From NCBI GenBank assembly GCA_038831915.1, contig JAWBKB010000003.1, positions 68,662-132,661 of the forward strand: a stretch of DNA of 64,000 nt, read 5' to 3'. The DNA comes from Candidatus Caldarchaeum sp. GTDB taxonomy: Archaea > Thermoproteota > Nitrososphaeria_A > Caldarchaeales > Caldarchaeaceae. Within the stretch, counting starts at the first letter, position 1. Each line of letters opens with the position of its first letter. Under the pieces are notes generated by a model that was not told where the DNA came from, did no database searches, and saw only the letters and a program-made list of their open reading frames with translations. Below, piece after piece: positions 17,359-54,906 of this stretch. The translations under genes were made by a program, and so were the position numbers.

Positions 17359-18321
17359 TTATTTGATGAACTTGATGCGACGTCTGTCTATTGTTAGGAT
17401 TGCCATGATGATTGCTATTGCTCCGAAAATTATCATTCGCACATTCAAGTCGATTGCAAGCATGCTTAGCCCGGAGTCAAGCCATCTGATTATCAAGACT
17501 CCGAGAAGAGTTCTATGCACGCCTCCTATTCCACCCGTCAACGCGGTTCCTCCAACCACGACGCTGGCGAACATGGGAATGGTGTCCAACACACCGACCT
17601 GCATGTGCGCACCCTGACTCTGCGACGCATACAGTATTCCCGAAACAGCTGCCAGCAACGCGCAAATCATGAAAACCAGAACACGTGTTCTGAGGATGTT
17701 TATTCCCGCTAGCCGAGCTCCAACCAAGTTGCCGCCGACCGCGTAAATAGCTCTGCCAAACGGCGTCGCCAACGTCAAGAACACGACGACCGCCCATATC
17801 CCTATGGCCCAGTAGAAAATTGAAGGCAATCCGAAAATCATCGTGGTTGAAAGCGCTCTGAAAGCTGGGTCGGTTATAATTCGTGTGTATCCTCCTGATA
17901 TGACTTGTGCGATTCCTTCAGCAACCATGGATGTCGCGAGAGTAGCCATGAAGCTTGGAATGTTGAATTTCGCCAGTAATATTCCGTTGACGAATCCGAA
18001 GCCAAGGGCTACGGCCAAAGTGATGGGCAACGCGCCGAACCCAAGCGAAGGATAAAGCACAGCAAAAATCATAGCTGACAACTTTAACACGCTTGGGACG
18101 GAGAAGTCAAACGACCCCATCATGATGACAAGCGTAAGTCCGCATGCCGCGATGAGGAAAAACGACATTCCATACAATAAAGTGATGACACTTTCGACGC
18201 TTGCAAGAAAGTAGGGATTAGCCAGCCGGAGAGAAACAATCAAAACCAACAGCCCAGTCAGCGGGATAATGGTGTTGAGGTTTCGCTGAACCCATTCCCT
18301 GTAGACAACTGGTTGCTTCAT
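17359..18321 (-). CDS. ABC transporter permease (monosaccharide/RbsC-type family)
   Basis: 320 aa, about 9 TM helices, typical BPD-type sugar permease organisation. No ATPase or binding-protein gene nearby. Confidence 0.7.
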   Translation of the reverse strand: MKQPVVYREWVQRNLNTIIPLTGLLVLIVSLRLANPYFLASVESVITLLYGMSFFLIAACGLTLVIMMGSFDFSVPSVLKLSAMIFAVLYPSLGFGALPITLAVALGFGFVNGILLAKFNIPSFMATLATSMVAEGIAQVISGGYTRIITDPAFRALSTTMIFGLPSIFYWAIGIWAVVVFLTLATPFGRAIYAVGGNLVGARLAGINILRTRVLVFMICALLAAVSGILYASQSQGAHMQVGVLDTIPMFASVVVGGTALTGGIGGVHRTLLGVLIIRWLDSGLSMLAIDLNVRMIIFGAIAIIMAILTIDRRRIKFIK

Positions 18322-18331
18322 GTTTTCACCT

Positions 18332-18604
18332 CTACGTGATGAGCGCGCCTTTAAGCGCTCGGGAGGATATCACGACTGCGCCGAGAAGCAGAGCGCCGAT
18401 GTAGAGTTTGAGATGGTTGTGGTCTACTCCGGGTAAGAGAAAGAGCCCGTTGAATATGAGGACGTAGATTAACGCGCCGAGAAGGGTGCGGTGCGGCCCT
18501 CCCATTCCACCGGCTAACGGTGTTCCGCCCAAAACTATCGCAGCCAATCCACGTATCAACTCGTTGGGGTCGAAATCGACACAAACATCATCCACTACAA
18601 GCAA
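18332..18604 (-). pseudogene. remnant: C-terminal ~90 codons of a second RbsC-type ABC permease (N-terminus missing)
   Basis: Translation ...LAGGMGGPHRTLLGALIYVLIFNGLFLLPGVDHNHLKLYIGALLLGAVVISS matches the conserved C-terminal permease helices. The upstream frame is closed and runs into an unrelated gene remnant on the opposite strand. Confidence 0.5.
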
Positions 18605-18649
18605 ATCAGAGTGTTGGGGACTTGGGGACTTCTATGTCGACGCCGACCG

Positions 18650-18795
18650 AGTTCAAACGCGCTCTGGATTTGGTGGTGAACAACGTAGTTGATTTGAAGC
18701 CTTTAATTACTTTGAAGCTTCCTCTCGTCGACGGTGTAAAAGGGTTCGCCGAAGCTCAGAGCTTCAGCAACCTCCGCGTAATGCTCAACCCTTGA
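18650..18795 (+). pseudogene. remnant: C-terminal ~48 codons of a zinc-type (MDR) alcohol/threonine dehydrogenase
   Basis: ...TEFKRALDLVVNNVVDLKPLITLKLPLVDGVKGFAEAQSFSNLRVMLNP* resembles the C-terminus of the MDR family (the same pattern appears in the intact paralog at 20458..21516). The upstream in-frame sequence is not ADH-like. Confidence 0.45.
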
Positions 18796-19378
18796 CAGAG
18801 GACGTTAGGTATTTCGGGTTGTCTACGAGTTTCGGCCGGCCGTTTTCCTCGACCACGAGCTTGGCGAATCCCTTTGTCTTCACGATTTCGTAGTCGTGGC
18901 CCGCGTCGAACGGGTAGGCGAAGAAGAAAACCAGTTCCTTCGAGCCTGTGTTCACTGTTCGGTGGCCCCAGCCGGGAGGAACATACACCACGGAATTCGG
19001 GGTAAGTTCCCGGGCTTCAACCACGCCGTCAGCCGTCTGCATAACTATCAATCCTTCTCCCTCAAGCCCGTAGTAGATTTCAGCCGCGGGCTTCTCGTGA
19101 AAATGTCCACGTGTCATGAAATATTAGCGGCCAACCTTTCCGGGATACATCACCGTCAACCCAAAATTAACATGTCCCATCCCACTTTCAAACGTCTTTT
19201 CATAATATTCGTAGACAACGAAGTCGCCGCGGGTTTGTAGTAGTTTCTCGACTTCATGGGTTTCGCTGAAGTATTCTTTGAGTGCTGAAAGCTTGACGAT
19301 GCGGTGGTTGGTATAGGGCTCGATTAAACGCTTGTGTAAATCAATTTTCGCGGAAAAAGTGCTCATGTTTCTCAGCAT
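18785..19378 (-). pseudogene. cupin-type glucose-6-phosphate isomerase (cPGI) interrupted by an in-frame TAA
   Basis: N-terminal ORF (19124..19378) ends ...MYPGKVGR. After the stop TAA at 19124-19126, the same frame continues as YFMTRGHFHEKP...VVYVPPGWGHRTVNTG (cupin His/Glu metal ligands). TAA sits where cPGIs have Glu (GAA). Confidence 0.6.
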
Positions 19379-19397: not shown

Positions 19398-20425
19398 TTA
19401 ATGTTTTATTGTTCGGACTGTTTTCTCGAAGACTCTGGGGTTTGCTGTGTTTTTTGGTTTTTCGCCTCTTGCGAGGGCTTCTATCGCCTCGGCAACCGCC
19501 ATATCTATTCCGATGAATGATTCGTAGGTGTATGCTCCGATGTGAGGTGTGACAACTACGTTTTCAAACTGTAGCAAGGGATGGCTTGAATCTATGTAGT
19601 CGCCTTCGACAACGTCCAGCCCTGCGTAACGGATTTTACCCGTTTTCAGAGCGTTGACCAGTGCATCGGTGTCGACGAGGCCGCCTCTCGCCGTGTTCAC
19701 AAGCATCGAGCAGGGCTTCATGAGCTCAAAGGCCTTCGCGTTCATCATGTGCCGTGTTTCCGGTGTTTGGGGCGTGTGAAGAGACACGATGTCCGATTCC
19801 TTGAGCAGGGTTTCAAAATCTGTTAAAACCACGTCGAGGTCTTTCACGGTTTCGGGGCTGATAAATGGGTCGTATGCGAGAACTTTGGCTTTGAACCCTT
19901 TGCTGAGAATTTCAGCGACTCTTTTGCCGATGTTTCCGAGACCAATGATACCTATTGTTTTACCCTTTAACTCGGGCCCGATGAACTTTGTTCTTTCACG
20001 CCATCGGTTTTCCCGAACCGCGATAAAGGCCTGTGAAACCATTCGGTAGGCGTCGAGCATTAAAGCAACAGCCAGCTCCGCCACAGCCTCTCTTTCAACC
20101 TCGCCGGGAACACGTGTAACAATCACTCCATGCTCCGTGGCTGCTTCCTAATCGATGTTATCCACTCCGATGCCGTTCCGCACCAACAACACAATATCAG
20201 AGTTTTTTCAAAAAATTCTCTGTCATAACGCGGGTTGGTGCTTACGACTGCAACATGATATCCTGCGAGAACAGCTGCGAGCTCACTGCCGCGGATGTCA
20301 CGTGGAACGTTGAGCCGCGTAACTTCGCCGAGACGGTTCAAACACGTGAACACATCAGTATATGCTCCAAAAGTCAAAGAATTTACAACAGCTATTTTCA
20401 GCTTCATAACCGTGTATATCTGCAT
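19398..20425 (-). pseudogene. D-isomer-specific 2-hydroxyacid dehydrogenase (glyoxylate reductase/PGDH family) with frameshift plus in-frame TAG
   Basis: N-terminal 100-aa ORF, then a 1-nt frame change in a homopolymer (plus-strand T6 at about 20203-20208). The correct frame reads ...KNSDIVLLVRNGIGVDNID, then TAG at 20148-20150, then EAATEHGVIVTRVPG... and the NAD-binding GIIGLGNIGKRVA domain. Confidence 0.6.
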
Positions 20426-26975: not shown

Positions 26976-28712
26976 GTGGCTACGCTTAGGATGGTCGAAA
27001 TAGTTCTGACGTTCGACCCTTCGCTCGGTCATCGTTTTCACGACTTCCCGCTTCTCAGCTTCCTACCATGCGCGCCTGTAAGATTCGTTCCCGGGCCCAT
27101 CTACCATTACCTGTCTCTGCCCGACGCGCCCTACGATCATTATGGCAGAGCACTTCTAGCACCATACGCCATCCGGAAAATAGAAGCCTGCCTCGTTAAA
27201 AAATCACGTCTACGAGTCGTCGTAGCTCATCCACGATTTGTTTCACGTTTCATCGGCCCCGACACAAAAATAATCGGCGTCAACACCATGGACCCGCTCG
27301 GCATCGGCCCCCTCACCCTCATGTTCAACAACGCCGGCCGCGAAAAATCATGGGTTACAAAAGAGTTTGAAGACTTGATGTGGCGCATAACTGTCGCCAA
27401 GAAGAACGCAGGCAGCAAGGCGAAAGTGGTGGTTGGCGGCGCGGGTGAATGGGAGTTCGAACACAGACCCGAGGCGATTCAGCAACTGGGAATCGACCAT
27501 GTTGTTCAGGGCGAAATGGATGACATCGTCCATTTGCTTTTTGAACAGCTGGCAGAAGACAGCGTAGACCACAGCATCTTCATGTATGGACACAAAACAA
27601 CCGTCTTCGACGCGCATGGCAGGCCTTTCATCCGGTACGTCAGAGACCCTGAGGGAAAATTCATCTGCCGCAACCCCGCATCCCGTTACAGGCTTCCAAA
27701 AATCGACGACATCCCAACCATCGTCAACCCCGTAATCAGCGGCCAAGCCGAAATAATGCGGGGATGCGGAATAGACTGCGACTTCTGCGAAGTCACGACA
27801 CGTCCGCTCCGATACTATCCGCCTGAAAAAGTGCTTGAAGAAGTCAAGGTAAATCTCCGTGCGGGAATTCGGAACGCATGGTTTGTGACAGACAACCAGT
27901 GGGCCTACATGGTTCGCGACCCGATGTTCTGGCCCAACAAAGAAGCCATCTTCACCCTTTACAGAACCATCATGTCCTACGTCTTCAAAGCAAACCCCAT
28001 GCATGCGACACTTGCACCGGTCGCAGCAGACCCTGAAGCAGCCATGGGTGTTTCGAAAATCGTTGGAGCAGGGCCCGACAAACACATCGGCGTCCAAATC
28101 GGCCTCGAAACCGGAAGCGACAGGCTTGTTCTCAAACACATGGTCAACAAAGCAAAACCCTTGAGGGTTGGAGTCGACGGAACATGGGCCGAAATAGTTG
28201 TCGAAGCCCAGAAAGTCTACAACGCCGCATACTGGATACCCGCATACACCATCATCCTCGGACAGGAAGGAGAAACAGATGAAGACAGCTGGGACACCAT
28301 AGGCCTCATCAACTACATGGCATCTCTAAACCTCTACTTCACAGTTACACCGATGGCCCTCGTCAACCTCGGAAGCCTCCGCGGCACAAACGTCCTAACA
28401 GATGTCTACGCAAACCTCACACCAGCCCAAGCGGCGCTAATATACGTCTGCTGGCGAAACACCAAAAGAATGGCCGAATCCATCGCGTTTAAAATCGCCA
28501 AAGACAACTTCCTATTCCGCGTGCTAACCACAACCATTCTCAACACAGGCGCACGGTTCTGGCTCGACAGACTCGAAAAATACTTCAACCGCCTCGGTAA
28601 AGAATATGAAAAAGCCATCGACAAAGCAAAAACCTACACACACATCAAAACAACAGGAACCGACTTCAACAAACTCAGGCAGCAGTACAAGGCTATGAAA
28701 GTGGCTGTTTAG
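26976..28712 (+). CDS. radical SAM protein, probably B12-binding-domain class
   Basis: CGIDCDFC (Cx3Cx2C) radical-SAM cluster motif in the centre. An N-terminal Rossmann-like stretch (KVVVGGAGEW) precedes it. 578 aa. Confidence 0.55.
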   Translation: MATLRMVEIVLTFDPSLGHRFHDFPLLSFLPCAPVRFVPGPIYHYLSLPDAPYDHYGRALLAPYAIRKIEACLVKKSRLRVVVAHPRFVSRFIGPDTKIIGVNTMDPLGIGPLTLMFNNAGREKSWVTKEFEDLMWRITVAKKNAGSKAKVVVGGAGEWEFEHRPEAIQQLGIDHVVQGEMDDIVHLLFEQLAEDSVDHSIFMYGHKTTVFDAHGRPFIRYVRDPEGKFICRNPASRYRLPKIDDIPTIVNPVISGQAEIMRGCGIDCDFCEVTTRPLRYYPPEKVLEEVKVNLRAGIRNAWFVTDNQWAYMVRDPMFWPNKEAIFTLYRTIMSYVFKANPMHATLAPVAADPEAAMGVSKIVGAGPDKHIGVQIGLETGSDRLVLKHMVNKAKPLRVGVDGTWAEIVVEAQKVYNAAYWIPAYTIILGQEGETDEDSWDTIGLINYMASLNLYFTVTPMALVNLGSLRGTNVLTDVYANLTPAQAALIYVCWRNTKRMAESIAFKIAKDNFLFRVLTTTILNTGARFWLDRLEKYFNRLGKEYEKAIDKAKTYTHIKTTGTDFNKLRQQYKAMKVAV

Positions 28713-28781
28713 ACTGCTGAAAGACGTGTGGATATCAGTCTACAGGTCGTTTAACGCTTCAACGAATTTTCTGAAGCTCTC

Positions 28782-29228
28782 TTATTTCTGCGCGAGTTTT
28801 TCAGGGTCGATTCTTTCACCGTAGCCTGGAAGCTTGTATTTCTCGTAGCGATGTTGGTATTTCAAATATTTCAAAGCATTTTCCCTACGTGGGTCTATGC
28901 ATTCGTTCGCCACAATCCAATCCTCCACCGATTTCTCAATAACAACAACACGTAAACCGTCTGTTGTTCCGCATTCTTTTTTGATGCGGTCTTCCACCTC
29001 CCGCGTATTGCTGCCGTGTGCGTCGACGACCACTATGACCACGCCGTTCATGCTGGCGGCCTTGACCGCTCTTGCCGCCTTGCTGTCAAACGGCCCTTTA
29101 ATGGATTTGACAATAATTTCAAGCCTCAAAGCCTCCGTGTTCTTAAGTTTCTTTATGAGCTTTTCAAAGGATAATTTGCCATACGTGTCTTCGCACAAAA
29201 TTGTCTTCTTCATATAATTGTAATCCAT
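28782..29228 (-). CDS. small Toprim-like/RloB-like protein, partner of the adjacent AAA ATPase
   Basis: 148 aa. N-terminal KKTILCEDTYGKLSF (acidic Glu motif like Toprim/RloB ilvvcEGekTE) and a second acidic strand VVIVVVDAHG. Overlaps the 3' end of the ATPase gene on the same strand. Confidence 0.4.
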   Translation of the reverse strand: MDYNYMKKTILCEDTYGKLSFEKLIKKLKNTEALRLEIIVKSIKGPFDSKAARAVKAASMNGVVIVVVDAHGSNTREVEDRIKKECGTTDGLRVVVIEKSVEDWIVANECIDPRRENALKYLKYQHRYEKYKLPGYGERIDPEKLAQK

Positions 29229-30611
29229 AGAGCCACATTTCGCTCGGTGTCAGCCCCTTCTCTTTCATCCATCGCCTCACCAGTTCGAGGTTTTCGACAC
29301 GTTTGACAACGCTGCCCTCAGGCGTCCTCTCGACCAACAGCAAATTTTCCAAACCCGCGACATCTACGACGACGGGCGAATGTGTAGCAATCAAGCACTG
29401 AACGCCGGAGTTTTTCAGCTCATTCACAACATATTCTAGAATTTCGCTGTGGAGAGAGTTTTCTATCTCGTCTATGCAGAGTATCGAAGGCTTGCTCTCT
29501 AGTGCTGTTAAGATGTGGAGAACCTTGTAGAATCCGTCGGGCAAGCTTGGCGAATGTATCTTAGCACCATAAAGCCGATCTCTTACAGAAGGAAAAACAC
29601 GACCATCGGATGTCAGCTCAATTTTCAGCACAAAATCAGGAAAAAGATTTTTCAAAGCATTCTCGATCCTCTCAGGCAAAACACCCGACAGAAACATCCG
29701 AGCAATCTGTGCGTTAAGTGTTTCACCTCTCTCAGATATGGTATGTGAAACGACCAAAATACTTGGTTCCCGCACCTTCCCCAAGTCAGGGTGGCGGATC
29801 AACAAGACTCTATTGAAAAATAGCCTTAAACTACTGATAACATATTGCAGCATGGACGTCCTTTCCCTTTTAAAGTAAGGGTTAATGAGCTTGATTCTTC
29901 CAAGACGAGGTTTCTCTCCTTCAAGAGTGAAGATTTATTATTACGCTAGTTAATGCAATCTTTCCGTCTACCTCGCTGTCGGTGATGATCAAGGACGGCG
30001 AAAATATTTCGGAAAATTAACGTATCGGCAAAATAGTGACAGGTGTTTTGGAAAGGATATGGGTTTGTGTGTCCCTAGTTATGTCTTCGAGTTTCACCCC
30101 ATGTCTTCTTCGCTGAAGAATTTTTCTCGTGTGGTGTTCATGTGTTTTTCGATAAATCGTAATTCCCCAACAACTCGAAGAGTATCTCCTTCTCTGCTGA
30201 TTGTTGCAATTCCGTGTAGCTTGATCTTTTCCATGATGGGTTTTACAGTGCCTTCCGCGCTAGTGAAAACGACTTCATACGATGCAGTGTAGTTTTCTTG
30301 ACATTCGAATTCGAGCTCGAAAGTAATGGGTTTTGTTTCATCATTGCCGTAAACGATGTTTTTGTATGACCACCATTCGAGATGAGGGATGTAAGGTGAT
30401 GTAATTTCGCCGACGGCCTTTTTTCAAGAATTTGAAAGCTTCTAAAAGACTTGTCTTGCCTGAGGCGTTGGGGGCCCACGAGAACGTTTAGCCCGGCGTA
30501 CAGCTCAACTACCGTGTCTTTGAGAGATTTCCAGTTCTGTAGTCGTATCATCCTAGGCTTCATCTGTTCTACGCCCAAACATGGCCCCGATGGATATAAG
30601 TGTTGGCACAA
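29164..30611 (-). pseudogene. AAA/ABC-type ATPase (AAA_21/RloA/OLD-like) disrupted by multiple frameshifts and a stop
   Basis: Intact C-terminal 229 codons carry Walker B LCIDEIENSLH and H-loop LIATHSP. The N-terminal part reads MIRLQNW...LNVLVGP, then a frame change at a G5/C5 run (about 30470) gives NASGKTSLLEAFKFLKK (Walker A). A second change at a T6/A6 run (about 30419-30424) gives AVGEITSPYIPHLEWWSYK...EEDMG*. The ~390 nt between has stops in all frames. Confidence 0.6.
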
Positions 30612-30638
30612 TTAGGACTCGTGGAATTCGTGCATAAA

Positions 30639-30932: not shown

Positions 30933-30956
30933 AAGTCCATGTTGTAGAACACAGGG

Positions 30957-31690: not shown

Positions 31691-31724
31691 CATCATAAAC
31701 ACCCTCAACAACCATTTAAACGGA

Positions 31725-31796
31725 GCCGGGGTGGCCGAGCAGCGAGGCGGCGGCCTGCAGAGCCGCTCTACAGGGGTGCAAATCCCCTCCCCGGCT
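31725..31796 (+). tRNA. tRNA-Cys (anticodon GCA), no encoded CCA
   Basis: Cloverleaf read by eye. Acceptor GCCGGGG/CCCCGGC (7 bp) with discriminator U. Anticodon stem GCGGC/GCCGC with loop CUGCAGA (GCA). 5-nt variable loop. T-stem AGGGG/CCCCU with loop UGCAAAU. Confidence 0.7.
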
Positions 31797-44424: not shown

Positions 44425-44429
44425 CAAAT

Positions 44430-45014
44430 TTGAAGGCAAGGTTTTCGAAAATCCTTTACGGCGCTGTTTTGGTCGCGGCCGCTACGCTGCTTCTTCTTTC
44501 GGTGCTTCACATGTTTTTCGGCTTCACCTTCCCCTTGCTTGTGGTTAAAAGCGGCAGCATGAGGCCCGTCATTGAAGTCGGTGACATCATAGTTGTGCTC
44601 CCCGTGGATGTTAACCAGATCAGAGCCGACCCCTTGAACGGCGACGTCATCGTCTTCTACAGACCAGGTGAAAAAGGCTCTCTCGGCTCGATAATCGTTC
44701 ACAGAGCCATTGCACGTGTTTCGAACGGGTTTATCACGAAAGGCGATGCGAACGCTGCCGCTGACTATTGGGGCCCTGTTCCGTTTGACCATGTCATCGG
44801 CAGGTGGACAGGGGTGAGTATTCCATCGTGGACAGGCATCGGGTTCGTCAGCCTGTTTCTCCGCGGCGAAATCTACTATCCTGCAGGGCCTCTCCTCGTA
44901 GTCTTACTCATCGCTGTGAACATCTATTTCATGGCTCGCGACTATTCACGCAACAGGTCTAAGAAAAGCGATAGCGGCGAATCAGCCGCACCCTCCGACT
45001 CCATCCAATCATGA
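44430..45014 (+). CDS. archaeal-type signal peptidase I (S26/Sec11-like)
   Basis: N-terminal TM helix then catalytic Ser motif VVKSGSMRPVIEVGDIIVV. Lies directly downstream of the surface protein gene. Confidence 0.7.
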   Translation: MKARFSKILYGAVLVAAATLLLLSVLHMFFGFTFPLLVVKSGSMRPVIEVGDIIVVLPVDVNQIRADPLNGDVIVFYRPGEKGSLGSIIVHRAIARVSNGFITKGDANAAADYWGPVPFDHVIGRWTGVSIPSWTGIGFVSLFLRGEIYYPAGPLLVVLLIAVNIYFMARDYSRNRSKKSDSGESAAPSDSIQS

Positions 45015-45309
45015 AAAACCCGAGAGCCGCCACAGCAACCAAAACAGCCAACTCATACAATCCGAAGAACATGAAAACAGCAAGCGCGGCGGCCGATGCA
45101 GCCGATGAATAAAACACGGGCCGTGCTAGTTTCTTCGCTTCACCAAGATATTGGGGATGTTTTTCAACGAGATGGCGTGGGAAGGGAATTAGTGGAACGC
45201 AGACTGTTAGACACGCGTATTCGCCGGCCTGCTTCTCGGCCCATGAAACAGGTTCTCCGCAGAGCGGGCATCTGTGGACCGAAGCCAACTCAAATCTGCG
45301 TTCTGTCAT
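44959..45309 (-). CDS. small zinc-ribbon membrane protein (hypothetical)
   Basis: HRCPLCGEPVSW...ACLTVC followed by two hydrophobic helices. Coding status uncertain. Confidence 0.25.
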   Translation of the reverse strand: MTERRFELASVHRCPLCGEPVSWAEKQAGEYACLTVCVPLIPFPRHLVEKHPQYLGEAKKLARPVFYSSAASAAALAVFMFFGLYELAVLVAVAALGFFMIGWSRRVRLIRRYRFS

Positions 45310-46254
45310 CTATGTTATAAAGGTCCTGTGTTAACGCTTCGTGCGATGGAGAGGTTTCGAATCGAGCCTTCTACGCGGATGGCGTGGGTGTCGCTCATCG
45401 TCTCCGACATAGAGAGGTCGCTGCGTTTTTACACGGAGTTACTTGGGCTTGGGGTTGTGAAGAAGGGTTCAGATGGGGGAATCATGCTGGGGCCTTCCCC
45501 CGAAACCGTGGTCGCAACTCTATATGAGCAACAGGATGCACAGCCGGCAGTTGGACGACGAGGCCTTTACCACTACGCCTTGCTGCTTCCCAACCGACGA
45601 GATTTAGCCCGTGTTTTCGTGAGAATAGCCCGGCGATGGAATTTCGAGGGATTCGCAGACCATTTAGTCAGCGAAGCCCTATACATCCGAGACCCCGACG
45701 GCCATGGAATCGAACTCTACGCCGACAGGTCCTCCACGGAATGGATGCGTAATCCACGAGGTGAAATCGAGATGGCTACTTTTCCGCTTGACGTTGATTC
45801 ACTGCTCATGGAGCATAAACCTGAAGGAACTTCAGCCGCTTTGGCGGATGATTGGCGCATGCCGGAAGGGACACGTCTCGGCCATGTTCATCTCCATGTT
45901 TCATCCCTGGCCCGGGCTGCGAAATTCTACCACGAAACCCTCGGCTTCGACATCACCAACCGCAGCTATCCAGGAGCTTTGTTCATGTCGGCGGGAGGGT
46001 ATCATCACCACATCGCGGTAAACATCTGGGCCGGGACAAACGCCCCACCTCCTTCACCCAACCACGCGAGGCTCCGAAGCTTCGCCGCTAAACTACCTTC
46101 TCGACAGTCTTTGGAGAAAGTGGTTGAACGGCTGAAGAGAGGCGGATTTGACGTGCACAACTCTTTGACCACATCCGTTGCTGGCTACGATGGGTTTTCC
46201 GTCTTGGATTTCGACGGCAACGTAGTCGAATTGGTTTGTCGAAGAGATTTTTAA
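45274..46254 (+). CDS. two-domain glyoxalase/VOC-family (extradiol dioxygenase-like) protein
   Basis: Two VOC modules (WVSLIVSDIERSLRFYTELLG... and GHVHLHVSSLARAAKFYHETLGF). Probable start at the Met near 45345 (MERFRIEPS). Confidence 0.6.
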   Translation: MDRSQLKSAFCHLCYKGPVLTLRAMERFRIEPSTRMAWVSLIVSDIERSLRFYTELLGLGVVKKGSDGGIMLGPSPETVVATLYEQQDAQPAVGRRGLYHYALLLPNRRDLARVFVRIARRWNFEGFADHLVSEALYIRDPDGHGIELYADRSSTEWMRNPRGEIEMATFPLDVDSLLMEHKPEGTSAALADDWRMPEGTRLGHVHLHVSSLARAAKFYHETLGFDITNRSYPGALFMSAGGYHHHIAVNIWAGTNAPPPSPNHARLRSFAAKLPSRQSLEKVVERLKRGGFDVHNSLTTSVAGYDGFSVLDFDGNVVELVCRRDF

Positions 46255-46267
46255 GGCCCGTGAGAAA

Positions 46268-47119
46268 GTGTTGCCGATGCTTCTCGGAGCACATGTCTCG
46301 ATTTCAGGCTCGGTTGCCATGGCTGTTGACAGGGCGGTCGAGCTGGGATGCACCACTTTCCAAATATTCACGCGGAATCCGCGTGGATGGACTTACACAA
46401 AGCTCAAGCAAACCGAAGTCAGCGAATTCCGTGAAAAATTCGCCAAAGCCGGGTACAAAGTGGCTATGGCTCACATGCCTTATCTCCCTAACATCGCGTC
46501 GCCGAAAAAACTCATCTACGATAAATCCGTGAAATCTCTAGCCGCTGAGCTGGAAAGATGCGGCCTTCTCGGAATAGACCTACTCGTAGTCCACATAGGA
46601 AGCCATCTAGGAGCTGGAATAGAAAAGGGAATAAACAACGCCGCGAACGCCGTCAACACAGCACTGAGAAAAGTCGACAACAAAGTGATTGTTTTGTTGG
46701 AGAACATGGCGGGCCAGCGAAATTCATGCGGCTCAAAGTTCGAAGATATTTCTCAGATTTTACGGAAAATCGAACAGCCTGAACGGGTTGGAATTTGTCT
46801 CGACACGTGTCATTTGTTGGCCGCGGGATACGACATACGCAACGTCGAAGCCGTTGAAAGAACTTTGAACCAATTCGACCGAGTGATTGGGCTGGAAAAG
46901 TTGAAAGCCGTTCATCTTAACGATTCGAAAGGCGGGTTAGGCAGCGGTCTTGACAGGCATGAACACATCGGGCACGGCAACATCGGCGACGAAGGATTCA
47001 GGGCTTTCATCAACCACCGCGTCATCAGGGACAAGCCCATGGTCATCGAAACACCTGAAGACGACGCAGGCAACTACCAAACAGATCTCCAAAAACTTCG
47101 CAGCCTATACAAGCCGTAG
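46268..47119 (+). CDS. nfo: endonuclease IV (AP endonuclease, xylose-isomerase-like TIM barrel)
   Basis: Nfo-like motifs LGAHVSISG, HAPYL-like HMPYLPN, LENMAGQ, HLND. Confidence 0.8.
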   Translation: MLPMLLGAHVSISGSVAMAVDRAVELGCTTFQIFTRNPRGWTYTKLKQTEVSEFREKFAKAGYKVAMAHMPYLPNIASPKKLIYDKSVKSLAAELERCGLLGIDLLVVHIGSHLGAGIEKGINNAANAVNTALRKVDNKVIVLLENMAGQRNSCGSKFEDISQILRKIEQPERVGICLDTCHLLAAGYDIRNVEAVERTLNQFDRVIGLEKLKAVHLNDSKGGLGSGLDRHEHIGHGNIGDEGFRAFINHRVIRDKPMVIETPEDDAGNYQTDLQKLRSLYKP

Positions 47120-47133
47120 CGGAGAGATGTGAA

Positions 47134-47958
47134 TTGGGTTTCAAAGTTGCGGTGGTTCAGCCGGCAGTAACAAATTCCGTGAATAGAAACCTGCAGAAAA
47201 TCGATGAACTGCTCGCCGAAGCGGGTAAACATTCGCCCGATTTGGCTCTCTTACCTGAAACATGGCAGCATTCCAACGTTTTCGCGGTGGCTGGACATCT
47301 TGCGGGAAAGGTCGACGATGTTTTGAGGGTTTTGGCGAAGCATGCGTCTGAGTTTGGAATGGTTGTCGCGGGCGGTGGCGTGGTTGTCCGACGTGAAAAA
47401 GGTTTGATGAATAGTTGTCCGGTCGTCGGGCCGGATGGTGAGGTTTGGGGATGGCAGGACAAAATCCATCTCTACCGCGGCGAAAAACAACATTTCGTCA
47501 GAGGAGACGGCGTCAGAGTGTTTAGTTTCCGAGGCGTGGGCTTCGGTGTTCTGATTTGCCATGACATCGTTTTCCCCGAATTAGGGCGGTTAATGGCTCT
47601 GAAGGGAGCTGACGTTTTGCTCAACCCTTCACGCATGCCATCATCCGGCGTTGAGCCATGGCACGACTACGTCAAATCCAGATGTCTCGAAAACCGCGTC
47701 GCGGCCGCGACCTCAAACGTCTGCGTAAACACGTCGACATGCGGGGGAACAGCCGTCTTCACGCTTGAAAGAGCCAACAGCTACATGTTCCGCGTCAGGA
47801 AAACTACGCTGAACGAGGTTGAAGATGTTTTGGCGGTTGAGATAAATGGTTTTGAGGAAATGCGTAAAGCACGGCGTGAAAGACTAGCCCACCGCTTGCC
47901 AAGCCTTTACAGAGAAATCGTCGAGGAAAATTACAGCAGCCCCGTCATCATGAAATAG
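47134..47958 (+). CDS. carbon-nitrogen hydrolase (nitrilase-superfamily amidohydrolase)
   Basis: MGFKVAVVQ start, catalytic-triad context E(LPET)...K...C (VLICHD). Confidence 0.7.
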   Translation: MGFKVAVVQPAVTNSVNRNLQKIDELLAEAGKHSPDLALLPETWQHSNVFAVAGHLAGKVDDVLRVLAKHASEFGMVVAGGGVVVRREKGLMNSCPVVGPDGEVWGWQDKIHLYRGEKQHFVRGDGVRVFSFRGVGFGVLICHDIVFPELGRLMALKGADVLLNPSRMPSSGVEPWHDYVKSRCLENRVAAATSNVCVNTSTCGGTAVFTLERANSYMFRVRKTTLNEVEDVLAVEINGFEEMRKARRERLAHRLPSLYREIVEENYSSPVIMK

Positions 47959-48737
47959 TTTTCGATTTGCTGTTTAGTTGTTTTATGGATTTCGTTCGCG
48001 AGGCCCAGCATTTCCAGAACCTGTATGCAGTTGTAGACTGCGTATCCGTGGAAGTGGTTGTTGAAGTAGCCGTAGGTTTTCTCTGTCCGGTCTATTATCT
48101 GTGTTAGTTTGGGTATCCATTCGCGGAGTTCTTCGGGCTTGTAGAGATAGTTGTACCATGGGTCTTTTCCTCTTCCATGCCATCGGACGTAGGCGAAATC
48201 AGCGGTTATCCATGTAATTGGTGGAAGCAGAGGCTCGTCGACGATTGTGTATGCGACATTGTGGCGTTGGAGGATGATGTATGTTTCGTCGGTCAGCCAG
48301 CTTGGATGCCGAAACTCTACAGTGTATCGGAAGTCTGTGTCGAGGTTTTTGAGAAAAGTTTCGAGTTTTTCGGTGTCTCTGCGTAGGCTCGGCGGAAGCT
48401 GAAAAAGAATGCATCCGAGCATTCCAGCCCTGTTCATGGGGGTCAAAAGCTCGGTAAACTCTTCCAAGGCCTTCAAAACACCAAGCCTGACATCGAGCCG
48501 TAGCTCATGTGTGATTTTCTGCGGAGCCTTCACGGCGAAGACAAATCCAGCGGGCACGGAATCCATCATAGTCATCAAAGCTTCCCGACGTGGATATGCG
48601 TAGAAGCTCGAATCCATTTCAGCGGTGTTGAAAAGCCTGCTGTAAAGCCGTAGCTTCGGCTGCTTGCTGCCCCCGTAGACAGGGCCCGTCCATTCTTCGT
48701 AGCTCCAGCCACTCGTCCCGAGAAAAACAGAACCCAA
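47931..48737 (-). CDS. DUF72-family protein
   Basis: DUF72 N-terminal signature LGTSGWSYEEW...RLFNTAEMDSSFY. Start placed at a TTG giving MGSVFLGTSGWSY. Confidence 0.55.
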   Translation of the reverse strand: MGSVFLGTSGWSYEEWTGPVYGGSKQPKLRLYSRLFNTAEMDSSFYAYPRREALMTMMDSVPAGFVFAVKAPQKITHELRLDVRLGVLKALEEFTELLTPMNRAGMLGCILFQLPPSLRRDTEKLETFLKNLDTDFRYTVEFRHPSWLTDETYIILQRHNVAYTIVDEPLLPPITWITADFAYVRWHGRGKDPWYNYLYKPEELREWIPKLTQIIDRTEKTYGYFNNHFHGYAVYNCIQVLEMLGLANEIHKTTKQQIENYFMMTGLL

Positions 48738-48774
48738 CCCGCCGAGAAATCCTTTTTCCAACCATTTATCAACT

Positions 48775-49704
48775 TTGGTCTGGATGTCGTCGACGGTGCT
48801 GGTGGGAGGCGGTGGATGGCAGTATTTCATCGTGCCGGGCAAAGACAGGCTACACACGTATTCGCTGGCGTTTGACTTCGTCGAAGTCAACAGCAGCTTC
48901 TACCGGAAAATCCCCCTCTCACAGGCTACTTCGTGGCGGCGACGAGTCAGGCCCGGTTTTATCTTCACCGTCAAATGCCACCAAGCCGTAACACATGTCC
49001 ACCGGCTTCAACCAACCGATTCAGCCGTCGACGCATTCAACCATTCCATCAAAATCTGCAAAACACTCAACGCACCTCTTCTCGTTGTCGAAACACCACC
49101 AACACTTAAACTCACTCCGTTCATCGTGAAACAATTTTTCTCAAGCGTCAGAACTGAAGGAGTTCGCGTCGGCCTCGAAATAAGAGGCCCCGCATCATCC
49201 GATGTTTTGACAGCCATGCAGGATTTGAACATCATCCACGTAACCGACCTTTCACGAGAAACTCCGAAATACTTTGACGAAGAAATCACGTATTCGCGGT
49301 TGTTCGGGAAAGGCGTTCACAACATGTACATGTTCGACGATGACGAAATACGGGAAATCAGTAGAAAAGCCGACGAATCTTCTTCGAAGAAGGTTTTACT
49401 GAGTTTTCACGGCCTCCGGATGTATGTCGACGCGGCGAGGATAAAGGTTTTCCGCGAAAAAGGCGTCATGGCTCCTGTGACCCGTGAAACAGGGATTGAT
49501 TCAGTGAAAGCAGCTTTGGCCGACGCTGTTTTTCCAGCGACTAAACATGAGCTGGAAACACGTCACGGATGGAAGCTTTTCGACCTCACCGTTGAAACAC
49601 GTGTAAGACTCGCGTCAATCCTTTCAAACATCCCCGACCAAACCTACACCAGCCTAGACAACCTTCTCGAAACCATCAAACTCCAGCTACTGACCACGCG
49701 GTAA
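48775..49704 (+). CDS. DUF72-family protein (divergent paralog)
   Basis: VGGGGWQY...FDFVEVNSSFY N-terminal DUF72 pattern. Confidence 0.55.
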   Translation: MVWMSSTVLVGGGGWQYFIVPGKDRLHTYSLAFDFVEVNSSFYRKIPLSQATSWRRRVRPGFIFTVKCHQAVTHVHRLQPTDSAVDAFNHSIKICKTLNAPLLVVETPPTLKLTPFIVKQFFSSVRTEGVRVGLEIRGPASSDVLTAMQDLNIIHVTDLSRETPKYFDEEITYSRLFGKGVHNMYMFDDDEIREISRKADESSSKKVLLSFHGLRMYVDAARIKVFREKGVMAPVTRETGIDSVKAALADAVFPATKHELETRHGWKLFDLTVETRVRLASILSNIPDQTYTSLDNLLETIKLQLLTTR

Positions 49705-49732
49705 AATTCAAAACCCATCAATACATGAAGAA

Positions 49733-50770
49733 ATGAGTGATGGTGTGGTGAAAGCCGTAGTTGTCGAAACACCTGGCGGGCCTGAAGCCCTGAAATACAC
49801 AGATGTTTCAGAGAGAAAACCGGGCCGCGGCGAAGTTCTCGTAAAACTCGAAGCCGTTGGAATGAACCGTATCGACATCTGGATTCGCAGCGGCCTATAC
49901 AAGGTTCAGCTACCGAGAATAATAGGTGCGGACGGCGCGGGAATTGTAGAAGAAGTAGGCGAAGACATGACCAACTTTTCGAAAGGAGACAGAGTTTTAA
50001 TCAACCCCGCTATCACATGCGGTCGATGCAGGTTCTGCATCTGCGGAGTTGACTCGCTGTGTGAAAACCATCGGCTTCTCGGACATGGCTTGGACGGAAC
50101 ATACGCGGAGAAAATCGTCGTTCCAGCGATCAACCTTCACCATGTTCCAACAGAGTTGAGCACCGTTCAAGCAGCAAGCATCGTAGTTAATTACGCGACG
50201 GTTTGGAACGCGGTGGTTCGCCGTGCAGGGTTGACTCCTGGCATGAACGTGTTGGTGATAGGTGCGGGAAGTGGGGTCGGAGTCGCAGCCATCCAGCTCT
50301 GTAAACTTTTCGGATGCACAGTAATCGGAACGGTCGGCGAAGACTGGAAAGCTGAGAAAGCCTACAAAATTGGAGCCGACTACGTCATTAATCGAAGAAG
50401 GCAGAGCATCAGCGAAGCCGTCAACGCTTTCACAAAAGGCCTCGGAGTTGACTTGGTTGTTGAGCATGCAGGCCAAGCGGTGTGGGAAGAAGCCGTGAAA
50501 AGCATGAGTCCCGGCGGAAAGCTTGTCTACTTCGGTGCGACAAGCGGTGAAAACGCGTCCATCAACATCCGCTATACTTATAGGCGTCAGCTCAGCTTCA
50601 TCGGGTCATACGGCTGGAACAAACAAGACATTCCACATGTTCTACAGCTGTTTCACAAAGGCCTTATCCGACCCATCATTCACACCACTTATCCGCTTAG
50701 CGAAGCAGCTGAAGCACACCGCCTCATGCAGTCCGACAACTTCTTCGGCAAAATCATTCTCCTACCTTGA
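49733..50770 (+). CDS. zinc-binding alcohol dehydrogenase/quinone oxidoreductase (MDR family)
   Basis: CGRCRFCICGVDSLC structural Zn motif, Rossmann motif VLVIGAGSGVG. Confidence 0.8.
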   Translation: MSDGVVKAVVVETPGGPEALKYTDVSERKPGRGEVLVKLEAVGMNRIDIWIRSGLYKVQLPRIIGADGAGIVEEVGEDMTNFSKGDRVLINPAITCGRCRFCICGVDSLCENHRLLGHGLDGTYAEKIVVPAINLHHVPTELSTVQAASIVVNYATVWNAVVRRAGLTPGMNVLVIGAGSGVGVAAIQLCKLFGCTVIGTVGEDWKAEKAYKIGADYVINRRRQSISEAVNAFTKGLGVDLVVEHAGQAVWEEAVKSMSPGGKLVYFGATSGENASINIRYTYRRQLSFIGSYGWNKQDIPHVLQLFHKGLIRPIIHTTYPLSEAAEAHRLMQSDNFFGKIILLP

Positions 50771-51582
50771 AAACATTCGAAATCCTCGAAAACATTCGGA
50801 ACGAAAGAAGACGGGGCTCGACAGGCCTGGCGTACATGGTTCTCGACGCATACCGAACGCTGGCTTTTGAAAGCCGCGACATCGCCGCCGACGTCTCCAA
50901 ACTATCATACATGATTGAAAACCTACGGCCTGCTATGCCTCTCATAGCTCGGTTCAGCCGCGAAATCGTGAAAAGACTGTCGAAGCCAACCCCTGAAGAG
51001 CTTCTACACGCCGTCGAAATAGTTCAGAACACGTATCGCAAAATGCTGGATGAACTTGTTAAGGTAGCTGTGTCGGCTTTAACGGACGTTAGGTGTCTTG
51101 CTACTTTGAGCCATAGCGGCTCTGTTGAAGCCGTTCTGAAAAATCATAGTGGTTTGAGGAGGTTGTTTGTTCTGGAGTCGAGGCCTCTCCGTGAAGGGTT
51201 GCTTCTGGCCTCATCGGTTTCGAAACACGTGGATGTCGAGGTGTTTGTCGACGCGGCGATGGCTTACGCGGTTGAAGAAGCTGACGCGGTCGTGGTTGGT
51301 GCAGACGCTGTGTTCGCCGACGGCTCTTTTTCGGGAAAAATCGGTGTAAGGCCTTTGGCGATGGCCGCTAAGGAATTGGGGAAGAGTTTCTACGTGTTGG
51401 CTGACACGTGGAAGTTTTCCGAGAAATTTGTCAACGAATTCGGGCCTCCGAATGACGTTGCCGCTGAGCATGCGGCGAGAAACCCTGTCTTCGAAAAAGT
51501 CGACGCAAAATTCGTGACATGGTTTCTGACGGAGAAAAAAGCCACAGAACCTCGCTCCATCCACTCCCTAATTACAGAATGA
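50767..51582 (+). CDS. eIF-2B alpha/beta/delta-family protein (ribose-1,5-bisphosphate/MTR-1-P isomerase-like)
   Basis: IF-2B family core TLSHSGSVEAVL...LESRPLREG...VGADAVFADGSFSGKIG. Confidence 0.6.
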   Translation: MKTFEILENIRNERRRGSTGLAYMVLDAYRTLAFESRDIAADVSKLSYMIENLRPAMPLIARFSREIVKRLSKPTPEELLHAVEIVQNTYRKMLDELVKVAVSALTDVRCLATLSHSGSVEAVLKNHSGLRRLFVLESRPLREGLLLASSVSKHVDVEVFVDAAMAYAVEEADAVVVGADAVFADGSFSGKIGVRPLAMAAKELGKSFYVLADTWKFSEKFVNEFGPPNDVAAEHAARNPVFEKVDAKFVTWFLTEKKATEPRSIHSLITE

Positions 51583-52976
51583 GGAAAGGGAGGTAAATCA
51601 ATGAGGTGAACCCGACGACGGGGACGCCGATTTTGAAGAACCGCCAAAACGATATCGTCAGCCGGTATTTTCTTTCAAGCACTTCGAGAACTATGATGTT
51701 TGAAGCTGCTCCGAGGATTGTGAGGCTTCCGGCGAGGGTTGAATAGGTTGCCAGGCCGAGCCAGAGGTTTTCGTCAAGCCCTATCACGCCGTTTTCCTTC
51801 ATGTATTGGATGAAGAGCTTGGTGAAGGGGACGTTCCTGAGTATTTGGCTGAAGCCGAGAGAAGCACCCATGATGAGCAACAGTCCTTGAAAACCGTTGA
51901 ACCCGTTCACGGCGGCGAAAGCGATAACTTTCTGCAGAAGGCCCGAACGCCAGACACCTTCCATGGTTACGAACATCGCGATGAAAAACAGTATCGTGCC
52001 AAGGTCTATCCGGGATGCGACGTCCCTGGGGTTGGTTACGAAAGGCCAGACAGCTGCCGCGACGATGAACGGAATAAGCCCGCGGCTTGAAACATGCGGC
52101 AATCCCAACGCCGCCAACACGTCGTTGAAAAACAAAGGCGCTACAGCGACACCGCCGCCTAACAAAGCGATGTAAGCATCTCTACGGAAAACAATAGCTT
52201 CGGGAGGAACCGCGACAGCCGCGACGGGTCTCCGCTTCACGTCGTAGATTTTGGCGATGTAAAGGCCGAGTAGCGTTAGTGAGATTAACGTGGGAATCGC
52301 GAGCTTTGCCAGGAAGGAGATGAACGGTGATTTAATTCCTGACTGAACAGCTGTCATCATGTTTTGCGGGTTGCCGAGCGGCGTCATCACGGAGCCGATT
52401 GTGATGGCGTGGCAGGGAAGCATGAAAGATGCTTCGTATTTGTCGCCGATTGCTTTTCCGACGAGAACGGCTATCGCGAGCCCTAGTAACGCGACGGTGT
52501 CGTTGACGAAGAAAGCCGCCATCAACCCGAAGACCAGGGATGAGCCGACGACCATCAACTTGGTGTTGCTGAAATATGATTAGAGCGAGTGATGCGATGT
52601 AGTTGAGAAGACCCGACGATTCCGCTATGCTGACCAAAGCGAACATTCCGATGAGGAAGAAGACGACGAAGTCGATGTAGTTGACTGCTTCATCAACATC
52701 AACGAGGCCCGTCAAAAACTTGAGAAACATCGCGGCCATCATGATAGACCAGACAGGGATGTGGGGAAATTGGTCTCGTAGAAGCAGGCCGCCGAGAAGA
52801 AACGCCGCCACTATAAACCCGCTAACTTCGGAATTCATCAGAAACATCCGTAAACTATGTTTATGGAAAAAAGCGATGGGAAAGAGTTTTCCACGGACTT
52901 GGAAAACCATTAATAGCCGTGTCAAGCCCATCAAACAAGTATGCAGACCGCTGAACACGAACATGAACACGGTCAT
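51572..52976 (-). pseudogene. ArsB/NhaD/CitMHS-superfamily permease split by a 1-nt frameshift
   Basis: N-terminal ORF ...SIAESSGLLNYIASLALII. The frame changes at about 52568-52582 (atcatatttcag) and continues as SNTKLMVVGSSLVFG...GNPQN in the 328-aa ORF. Confidence 0.5.
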
Positions 52977-53780
52977 GAAGGAAGCCTCTGGCCCGCCGTG
53001 ATAGGTCTCGCGGTGTTGGTTCTCGTCGCCGGCCTGATACTAATTCTCCGCAACATCAACTTCACGCTCGGAGTTGGGCTTATAGCGGTTTTCATAATCA
53101 CGTTCGGCGTTTTTGTGACCCGCGAAGTAAAGTCATGGCCGCATGTGATTGAAATGTTTTTCGCACGATTAAGAGGAACCGCTATACCGTCTGAGCCTGA
53201 GAAAGTAGGCGGCGTCGGATTTCCAACAGCCATATTTCTCTTCACGGAGGTTGCGTTGTTCGGAGCAGGGTTCGGCAGCTATTTCGTGATAAGGGCTTCT
53301 TTCCCGGTATGGCCTCCGCTCGGCGCACCTCACCTCGACGACTTCATTCCACGCCTCCAAACATTCATGCTTCTGTTCAGCAGCCTCGCCATCGAATACG
53401 CTGTCTACTCGGTTAAACGTGACAGACAGAAACCACTTCTCGCCGGAATCATCGCTACAGCTCTATTCGGAACAGGGTTTCTTGTCCTCAAACTCGGACT
53501 CGAATGGCCGCACCTCCTCTTCGACCTTGGATTCACACCTGACACAGGCATCTACGCATCGATGTTCTACATCCTGCTCGGAGCACACGGCGCACACGTC
53601 TTCGGCGGCGTCGTCGCACTCGTCATCGTCGCGGGAAGAGCCAAACTTGGCCAGTTCAACTCAAGAAGCTACGGCCTACTCGAAGGAGTCAGCATCTACT
53701 GGCACTTCGTCCACCTCGTCTGGCTGTTGCTATTCGCACTCATCTACGAAGGAGCCCTGCCATGGCTCCACCACCATTAG
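52941..53780 (+). CDS. heme-copper oxidase subunit III-like protein
   Basis: His-rich N-terminus then 7 TM helices ending with the subunit III signature YWHFVHLVWLLLF. Confidence 0.55.
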   Translation: MQTAEHEHEHGHEGSLWPAVIGLAVLVLVAGLILILRNINFTLGVGLIAVFIITFGVFVTREVKSWPHVIEMFFARLRGTAIPSEPEKVGGVGFPTAIFLFTEVALFGAGFGSYFVIRASFPVWPPLGAPHLDDFIPRLQTFMLLFSSLAIEYAVYSVKRDRQKPLLAGIIATALFGTGFLVLKLGLEWPHLLFDLGFTPDTGIYASMFYILLGAHGAHVFGGVVALVIVAGRAKLGQFNSRSYGLLEGVSIYWHFVHLVWLLLFALIYEGALPWLHHH

Positions 53781-53795
53781 GACGGTGAACGTGAA

Positions 53796-54281
53796 ATGAT
53801 GCGTCTCACCTCAACGCATTTCGGTATTTTCGTCATCTTCGCAGCTATTTACGCGGCTGGAACGCTTGCACTCGGCAGTCTACCGCTTGGCGATATCCAG
53901 GTCAAAACAGGTGAAATCGCCACACCTCTCGCCGCCTTGTTCGGGTTCGCGTCTGTAGTCGGCCTCGTGTTCGGCCAATTCATAGCAAACATGGCTTCGC
54001 CACTCGGGCCCCTCGACCTCATCACGCCGGGAATAGCTTTCGTCGCTCTACTCATCCTCCGCAGGCTCGCCAACAAATCCATCCTACTCGGCGTCGCTGC
54101 TTACTACGTCATCACAGCCGTGTGGATAGCTTTCCTCACATCAACCGTCACTGGTAGAAACGACGCTTTCATCAATCCATTCATCAGCCAAGCGATAGCC
54201 CTCGCGATAGGCACAGTACTATACTTCGTCGTCAAGTCACGGATGCCGAAACCCGTTCCAGCTCAAACAGCCGAAGCATAA
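53796..54281 (+). CDS. hypothetical membrane protein (ECF-S/QueT-like small transporter component?)
   Basis: 161 aa, 5 TM helices. No firm family. Confidence 0.35.
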   Translation: MMRLTSTHFGIFVIFAAIYAAGTLALGSLPLGDIQVKTGEIATPLAALFGFASVVGLVFGQFIANMASPLGPLDLITPGIAFVALLILRRLANKSILLGVAAYYVITAVWIAFLTSTVTGRNDAFINPFISQAIALAIGTVLYFVVKSRMPKPVPAQTAEA

Positions 54282-54313
54282 ACAGTTTTAAAGCAAACAA
54301 ATAGGTCAAACAC

Positions 54314-54906
54314 GTGCAAGACATCGCCTTCGAAATAATCAAATCAACCATTGCACTGTTCGTCATCGTGGACCCTGTAGGAGCCCTGCCTTTCGTCGCA
54401 TCCTTTGCGAGGGGCTCGACAGACAGGAAAGAAAGAAAATCATCGACCAATCCGTGTTGGCTGGAACTTTCCTGCTACTGGTTTTCTCGATAAGTGGACA
54501 TGGAATTCTTTCGTTTCTCGGCATTTCGGTTGCGAGCTTCACCGTTGCAGGCGGTCTTCTACTTCTTGTTCTCGCGTTTAGAATAGTTCAAGGAGGTGAA
54601 GGATGGCAGACCCGGGGTTCCAGCCCCGGTGTCTTCCCCCTCGCCTTTCCCCTTCTCGCAGGCCCCGGCGCAATCATCACCGTCATCTTCTCAATAAACT
54701 CGCTGGGAATTCCCTATTCGGTGGCACCCGTCGTCATAGTGGTGACGACTACTTGGCTGGTTCTCCTCGCAATCGACCGCGTGCTGGTCATTATCGGCGA
54801 ATCGGGAGCGGACGCAGTAGCACGAATAATGTCTGTCTTCGTCGCGGCCATCGGAATACAGTACGTCGTCACAGGGTTGATGGAATCCGCCCAACTACTG
54901 AGATGA
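54314..54906 (+). pseudogene. MarC-family (UPF0056) membrane protein with a 1-nt frameshift in an A-run
   Basis: GTG start. N-terminal IALFVIVDPVGALPFVASF (MarC signature). The frame is lost at the A4 run 54436-54439 (...TDRKERK|). The correct frame resumes as IIDQSVLAGTFLLLVFSISG... (ORF 54454..54906). Confidence 0.5.

Follow-up and report, generated by a model that had tools for sequence, protein, structure and literature searches.

Probable recent gene inactivation in a near-clonal natural population of Candidatus Caldarchaeum

Nine disruptions in a 64-kb stretch of DNA

The stretch of DNA analysed here (hereafter, the window) comprises 64 kb of Candidatus Caldarchaeum sp. (assembly GCA_038831915.1, contig JAWBKB010000003.1, positions 68,662–132,661 of the forward strand) and was studied together with approximately 9 kb of flanking sequence. 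The organism is an uncultured member of the Aigarchaeota/Caldarchaeales, presumably of hot-spring origin, for which the nearest other species are represented by 'Candidatus Caldarchaeum sp.' and Aigarchaeota metagenome-assembled genomes (MAGs). An earlier reading of the window (hereafter, the original prediction) had claimed that at least nine genes are broken, four of them by in-frame stop codons, and all nine disruptions, the four stops included, were found in the sequence. Sequence on both sides of the lesions is homologous to full-length families, with Pfam coverage that is contiguous from fragment to fragment. The repaired proteins span NCBIfam profiles end to end, and tblastn alignments with orthologues switch frame at the lesions. 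The affected genes are accessory genes of catabolism and transport, as had been proposed, with the exception of one ATPase that belongs to a defence island.

The window holds approximately 66 genes at a GC content near 50% (range 0.45–0.54), and its intergenic gaps of at least 90 nt sum to 1.7 kb of the 64 kb, corresponding to a high coding density. No transposase family is found among the Pfam matches of the window proteins, and thus no insertion sequences are in view. Lesions are absent from approximately 27 genes outside the 17–55 kb segment, and within that segment approximately 35 genes are intact; all genes for biosynthesis and cofactors are among the intact ones inside and outside the segment. 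Finding at least eight disrupted genes among 66 has a Poisson probability of 0.02 for a background of 5% and 0.001 for a background of 3%, for a window that was not randomly sampled.

Disrupted genes of sugar utilisation

Two genes correspond to the RbsC-type permease that had been described as truncated. The open reading frame (ORF) at 17359–18321 (reverse strand), encoding a CUT2/RbsC-type ATP-binding cassette (ABC) permease of 320 residues (hereafter, permease 2), is intact and of full length: it matches Pfam BPD_transp_2 (3–268 of 269) and the NCBIfam model RbsC (23–316 of 321), and its homologues of 319–323 amino acids align with 100% coverage. It is nonetheless orphaned, the upstream genes for the binding protein and ATPase being gone. 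The truncation holds for a second RbsC-type permease (hereafter, permease 1), of which the last ~82 codons remain at 18335–18580 (reverse strand) and the 5' three quarters are lost. Searched alone, this remnant has no match in the PDB or Pfam, and it was identified solely via sister-species proteins, with 94% identity by tblastn to residues 249–330 of the sister permease 1; it shares 41% identity with the C-terminus of permease 2.

Adjoining this remnant on the forward strand are the C-terminal ~72 codons of a zinc-dependent alcohol dehydrogenase (ADH), at 18569–18792, with a frameshift at ~18622. The remnant matches residues 281–298 and 296–352 of the 352-residue ADH of a relative (L102) in two frames by tblastn, in agreement with the truncated ADH that had been predicted. 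The truncated 5' ends of the permease 1 and ADH remnants meet head to head and overlap at 18569–18580. The two remnants are thus the two sides of a single structural junction, at which one deletion or rearrangement took away most of permease 1 together with the ATPase and binding-protein genes. The figure of nine broken genes carries the qualification that two of them go back to this one structural event. A Logan contig from run SRR27730013 (L003) stops exactly at the 18569 junction, maybe as a result of structural heterogeneity in that sample and maybe by chance.

The operon is complete in the sister species, in the order binding protein, ATPase, permease 1 and permease 2. The sister locus is syntenic with 7–18 kb of the window and includes an FGGY kinase, the binding protein, the ABC ATPase, permease 1, permease 2, a 140-residue ORF, an M50 protease, FdhD and MoeA. 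A more distant relative has the transporter linked with ADHs, a 2-hydroxyacid dehydrogenase, an aldolase of the 2-keto-3-deoxy-6-phosphogluconate type, an aldehyde dehydrogenase, a cupin-type glucose-6-phosphate isomerase (GPI) and an aldehyde:ferredoxin oxidoreductase (AOR), a linkage indicating that these genes form a sugar-utilisation island in the group. Two of three MAGs of the sister Caldarchaeum species (L099 at ~6990 and L101 at ~7900, versus L100 at ~2460) carry a 1-nt deletion, CTCAGAAAA to CTCGAAAA, that splits the ABC ATPase of the corresponding sugar transporter.

The cupin-type GPI gene follows at 18785–19378 (reverse strand) and is interrupted by an in-frame TAA at 19124–19126. 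Its C-terminal fragment matches positions 68–170 of 182 in PF06560, and a search of NCBIfam returned no model matching the cupin GPI. The stop is polymorphic: a contig from run SRR27730031 (L001) has GAA at this position and encodes an intact allele of 197 residues.

The adjacent D-2-hydroxyacid dehydrogenase pseudogene (19398–20425, reverse strand) carries two lesions. Its first 74 codons lie in one frame and the remainder in another, with the switch at a T6GA6 tract (A6 at 20203–20208), and a TAG at 20148–20150 occupies a position that is Leu or Ile in homologues. A metagenome scan with the repaired protein returned distant relatives only (identity of 49% or less, without synteny) and confirmed the frameshift.

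Disrupted oxidoreductases and membrane proteins

The AOR pseudogene at 35342–37165 (forward strand) has three lesions, namely a frameshift at an A6 run (35976–35981), a TAA at 36118–36120 where AORs of the Pyrococcus type have Glu, and a 1-nt deletion at ~36400, outside any homopolymer, that shifts the frame again. The MAG GCA_038886635.1 (L097) shares both frameshifts and has GAA in place of the stop, which indicates that the gene was killed by the frameshifts first and acquired the stop later. The sister-species orthologue (L012) is intact, with 610 residues and 82% identity, and sits in a conserved syntenic block comprising a gene for a 469-residue protein, AOR, ThiF and ThiS. Divergence from L097 is uneven along the window, amounting to ~1.0% at 31800–38550 (the methyltransferase, 476-residue protein and AOR genes) versus ~0.1% at 44000–50500, which suggests recombination or locally faster evolution.

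A FAD_binding_2/KstD-like oxidoreductase is encoded at 39308–40966 (reverse strand) and is interrupted by a single in-frame TAG at 40121–40123. The two halves lie in one frame, and the repaired protein matches the 3-ketosteroid-dehydrogenase-like model NF009478 over positions 7–550 of 559 (1.5e-198). The stop codon is AAG (Lys) in L097 and in a contig from run SRR17794512 (L098), which belongs to a different project, giving an intact allele of 552 residues (P0001). The sister-species orthologue (P0002) is likewise intact, with 554 residues and 81% identity. Outside the Aigarchaeota, the closest relatives of this flavoenzyme are from Chloroflexota (Thermoflexus, Anaerolineae and Thermomicrobium; 60–65% identity), which hints at a possible inter-domain transfer among hot-spring organisms.

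Two further lesions affect membrane proteins. The SLC13/CitMHS anion permease (51572–52840, reverse strand), described as ArsB-like in the original prediction, has a +1 insertion at ~52580–52583 and is annotated as a 327-residue C-terminal part only. Its sister orthologue (P0122) has 425 residues in an unshifted frame and 77% identity, and for the species of the window the records contain just the truncated form. The MarC/NAAT-family protein (54305–54906, forward strand) is frameshifted in an A-rich, (GAAA)n-like tract at 54422–54444, with the change of frame located inside GGAAAGAAAGAAAA.

Degraded defence ATPase

The ATPase pseudogene at 29164–30569 (reverse strand), previously called RloA-like, belongs with AAA_21 ATPases of the AbiL/AriA/HEC-01A-like kind, the type of defence system being assigned by profile matches alone. 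Frameshifts at ~30473 and ~30420 lie in and after the P-loop, and the middle segment (29935–30121, ~190 nt) is degenerate with eight stops. A C-terminal ORF of 229 residues remains. A second AAA_15/AAA_21 ATPase, just outside the window at 17959–18950 of L104, is split into calls of 77 and 211 residues and is probably another broken defence gene.

The pseudogene is located in a GC-poor stretch (0.45–0.48) at 28000–34000 around a tRNA-Cys gene (31724–31797). The stretch also holds a 148-residue partner ORF with weak mad4/HEC-01B matches, two small membrane/HTH ORFs and a methyltransferase pair, and has the appearance of an integrated element or a defence island. Turnover of the ATPase is to be expected in an island of this kind, which is GC-poor and also carries tRNA-Cys and a type II methyltransferase.

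The longest homopolymer of the window, A8 at 31984–31991, lies at the 5' end of the type II DNA methyltransferase gene (31978–33057). Three other MAGs have A9 at this place and L097 has A5TTA7, and the N-termini predicted for the tract variants give proteins of 359, 392 and 350 residues. The A8/A9 tract could be hypervariable or phase-variable, or could reflect an assembly difference. Downstream, a 205-residue ORF at 33048–33665 is a possible restriction partner, for which a family search gave no match; near its 5' end, at ~33113, the window and L097 differ by an A4 versus A5 indel.

Occurrence of the lesions in other assemblies and strains

The evidence considered here comes from assemblies and their sequence comparison. 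Exact-protein look-ups, Logan per-run contigs and NCBI MAGs indicate that the population has been assembled repeatedly, with identities of 99–100%. Logan contigs of run SRR27730016 are 100% identical to the window. Contigs of SRR27730013, -14, -15 and -31 and the MAGs GCA_038831565.1, GCA_038828585.1, GCA_038885715.1, GCA_038827665.1 and GCA_038885335.1 are 99.8–100% identical to it and have the same indels.

Of the four stops, three vary among strains sharing at least 99% identity, the other allele being a sense codon: GAA changed to TAA in GPI and in AOR, and AAG to TAG in the FAD enzyme. Close strains thus supply intact alleles of GPI and the FAD enzyme and the sense codon at the AOR stop, and the disruption of GPI and the FAD enzyme is accordingly very recent. 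Comparison with sister genomes, which the original prediction had recommended, yielded intact and partly syntenic counterparts of AOR, SLC13, the FAD enzyme and, through permease 1, the sugar ABC operon. The lesions of the 2-hydroxyacid dehydrogenase and the ATPase were compared with distant homologues.

Single-nucleotide polymorphisms (SNPs) between strains comprise 41 non-synonymous, 22 synonymous and no stop changes in lesion-free genes, 10, 1 and 1, respectively, in AOR (11 non-synonymous versus 1 synonymous when the stop is included), and 4, 3 and 1 in the FAD enzyme. Random mutation of these genes would be expected to yield 24–29% synonymous, 69–72% non-synonymous and 3–4% nonsense changes, and nonsense changes account for 3 of 84 coding SNPs (3.6%). 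The ratio of non-synonymous to synonymous rates (dN/dS) in intact genes is ~0.7 between strains, and the proportion of transitions to transversions (58:34) is unremarkable. The SNP pattern is close to neutral, with small numbers.

Origin of the disruptions

The nine disruptions very probably represent genuine pseudogenes that arose recently, on an evolutionary scale, within a natural and near-clonal Ca. Caldarchaeum population. The lesions themselves, their recurrence, their polarity and the intact orthologues are observed, whereas the loss of function of the products and relaxed or inefficient purifying selection as the cause are inferred. Ordinary spontaneous mutations would inactivate accessory genes whose loss is tolerated, by substitutions to TAA or TAG, by 1-nt indels that lie partly in A/T runs, and by one larger deletion or rearrangement. 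The targets would comprise the sugar uptake and catabolism island (the CUT2 ABC transporter, Zn-ADH, cupin GPI and 2-hydroxyacid dehydrogenase) and, further, AOR, the KstD-like flavoenzyme, the SLC13 anion permease, the MarC-family protein and the defence ATPase. On this reading decay is stepwise and ongoing. The older lesions are fixed in all strains seen and comprise the two AOR frameshifts, those of SLC13 and MarC, the ABC/ADH junction and the damage to the 2-hydroxyacid dehydrogenase. The younger ones, the stops of GPI, the FAD enzyme and AOR, still segregate between strains no more than 1% apart.

Several observations weigh against this interpretation. All the lesion-bearing assemblies derive from two sequencing projects, and a shared technical bias is therefore conceivable for the two indels in A runs. 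In the sister species the ABC operon is flanked by thermosome and FGGY kinase genes, neither of which has a match in the window, and the junction may accordingly be a rearrangement breakpoint and not a deletion. The non-synonymous excess of AOR over intact genes is not significant (11:1 versus 41:22, Fisher P = 0.09), and the intact genes themselves have a high proportion of non-synonymous changes, as expected for very close strains. On these numbers the argument from selection is weak.

Sequencing or assembly error, in the form of consensus errors (above all at homopolymers) or a chimeric consensus of mixed strains, is a highly improbable source of the lesions. Two indels do fall in A6/T6 runs, the A8/A9 tract differs across assemblies, and N-gaps in MAG scaffolds can mimic split genes; the extra split genes in L097 (a 907-residue surface protein and AP_endonuc_2) and in L006 (PspC) were discarded as N-run scaffold gaps. 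However, identical lesions turn up in at least six MAGs and in per-run Logan assemblies from at least five runs, differences between assemblies segregate cleanly by sample, with the alternative alleles being sample-specific, and both substitutions and indels outside homopolymers (~36400 and ~52583) are atypical of errors. Furthermore, only 2 of the 62 homopolymers of 6 nt or longer in the window carry a frameshift and the other 60 carry none. Recurrence in independent assemblies implies that the lesions are not consensus errors and bears out the view that they are genuine mutations; the accompanying statement that the indels sit mostly in homopolymers was overstated, as A6-type runs account for two of the five small indels found in metabolic genes. 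Programmed recoding or phase variation, with stops read through (for instance, TAG as pyrrolysine) and frameshifts that are programmed or reversible, would suit GPI, the FAD enzyme, SLC13 and MarC, each with one lesion in a well conserved ORF, and some of the shifts are in A-rich tracts. It is scarcely credible, given that the sites lack conservation and that the three lesions of AOR differ in age. GAA, GAA, AAG and unshifted frames are found at these sites in the sister species and in strains of 99% identity or more, both TAA and TAG occur, and AOR and the 2-hydroxyacid dehydrogenase each combine several lesions. The window has no pyl genes or suppressor tRNA, its sole tRNA being tRNA-Cys, and the tracts are short (A6), with two of the shifts outside repeats. 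That artefact and recoding are the weaker readings had been anticipated by the original prediction, and the ancestral sense codons of three of the four stops and the intact sister orthologues agree with it. A reassigned genetic code was rejected in view of ~55 long uninterrupted ORFs. Phase-variable loci were also rejected for the nine lesions, their tracts being A6 or non-repetitive and without length variation among assemblies; the only length-variable tract is the A8/A9 run of the methyltransferase gene, which is not one of the nine.

Two further explanations accept the pseudogenes as real and differ from the preferred one in cause or extent. Genome-wide reductive evolution, in which a bottleneck or dependence on a partner or host has made selection ineffective and the whole genome is gaining pseudogenes, seems rather unlikely. 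It would be in keeping with a near-clonal population across many samples, with the near-neutral SNP spectrum even in intact genes, with the split AAA ATPase just outside the window and with the segregating ABC ATPase frameshift of the sister species. On the other hand, the ~27 genes outside and ~35 genes inside the 17–55 kb segment are intact, with all biosynthetic and cofactor genes among them, the total of the larger gaps is small, and the high proportion of non-synonymous changes between very close strains is reportedly a known effect of time dependence (Rocha et al. 2006). The dependence on a host or partner that had been suggested found no support: no signal of it was found in the window, where coding density is high, GC content is ~50% and insertion sequences are not in view, and its relatives among the Aigarchaeota live freely in hot springs. 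A related scenario, for which the chances are small, is that of a free-living thermophilic archaeon in genome-wide decay after a recent clonal expansion or bottleneck, with nonsense and frameshift mutations fixing near the neutral rate and the window being representative. Were genome-wide decay true, the initial stage of genome reduction would have a natural archaeal model in this population. Adaptive gene loss, in which inactivation was itself selected, for example to save costs or to avoid toxic uptake, is improbable. The clustering of lesions in functionally linked genes of the sugar island, the predominance of the FAD-enzyme and GPI stop alleles in most samples and the independent hit to the ABC transporter in the sister species would fit with it, but AOR gained its third lesion when already dead, which is a signature of neutral decay, and no gene has parallel independent lesions within the species.

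Comparison with known cases of gene inactivation

Accumulation of pseudogenes is known in bottlenecked or niche-restricted bacteria such as Mycobacterium leprae, Yersinia pestis, Shigella, Salmonella Typhi and Sodalis glossinidius. As in those bacteria, the window has many young pseudogenes with one to three lesions each, mainly in catabolic, transport and accessory genes, while orthologues are intact in close relatives and housekeeping genes are spared. In contrast to them, Caldarchaeum is an uncultured, presumably free-living hot-spring archaeon, several of the lesions are still polymorphic, and the window is without expansion of insertion sequences, low coding density or AT drift.

A further parallel is given by the natural archaeal populations of Sulfolobus and Ferroplasma, for which population genomics has made strain-level polymorphism in gene inactivation known. 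Near-identical, co-occurring Caldarchaeum strains similarly differ by nonsense and frameshift alleles, with some indels in A/T runs. Among thermophilic Thermoproteota, Pyrobaculum aerophilum is said to show instability of mononucleotide runs (Fitz-Gibbon et al. 2002); the poly-A tract at 31984–31991 resembles this in varying in length between assemblies, whereas most lesions of the window lie outside long homopolymers.

Archaeal programmed recoding includes pyrrolysine at UAG and the programmed -1 frameshift of Saccharolobus solfataricus fucA1, and the window shares with these cases an in-frame UAG or a single frameshift in an otherwise conserved ORF. It differs from them in that the nearest strains and species do not share the interrupting sites, UAA and UAG both occur, some genes have multiple lesions and no recoding machinery is present in the window. 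With the turnover of defence islands, in which AAA_21 ATPases of the AbiL, PARIS-AriA and HEC-01 types lie by restriction-modification systems and tRNA genes, there are in common the degraded ATPase with a small partner ORF, the type II methyltransferase, the tRNA-Cys gene and the low GC content; the defence ATPase is, however, only one of the nine lesions.

Consequences for annotation

The finding corrects the metabolic picture of these Aigarchaeota MAGs, in that AOR, the cupin GPI, the 2-hydroxyacid dehydrogenase, the KstD-like enzyme, the sugar ABC importer and the SLC13 permease should not be treated as working functions of this strain. Some of the pseudogenes are currently annotated as ordinary shortened proteins. 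The locus also provides a small, clean example of stepwise gene loss among natural strains in which ancestral and derived alleles have both been sampled, so that allele frequencies can be traced in public read sets. A literature search found no paper on pseudogenes in Aigarchaeota and nothing relevant on the sequencing run. Pseudogenes and strain-level inactivation polymorphisms are well known, the event is of an expected kind, and its value is mainly practical.

Other features of the window and its flank

Some features unrelated to the nine lesions were observed. Approximately 0.4–2 kb past the left edge of the window, at 13417–15004 of L104, there is an array of clustered regularly interspaced short palindromic repeats (CRISPR) with the repeat CTTTCAATTCCCTCTTGCGGGATTAC, present in at least 24 copies at ~67-nt spacing, in a region where the MAG has no gene call. 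Within the window, a tandem repeat of 42/84 nt at 38483–38723 encodes 'LREGQNKLWEEVRS' units in a 278-residue coiled-coil ORF; copy number and sequence of the repeat vary among MAGs, with gene calls of 228–306 residues. Lastly, a 203-residue MscS-like ORF at 16293–16904 lies between the M50 protease and a 152-residue ORF. The sister species lacks a counterpart of the MscS-like ORF at the syntenic place and instead has a HEPN/nucleotidyltransferase pair a few genes off.

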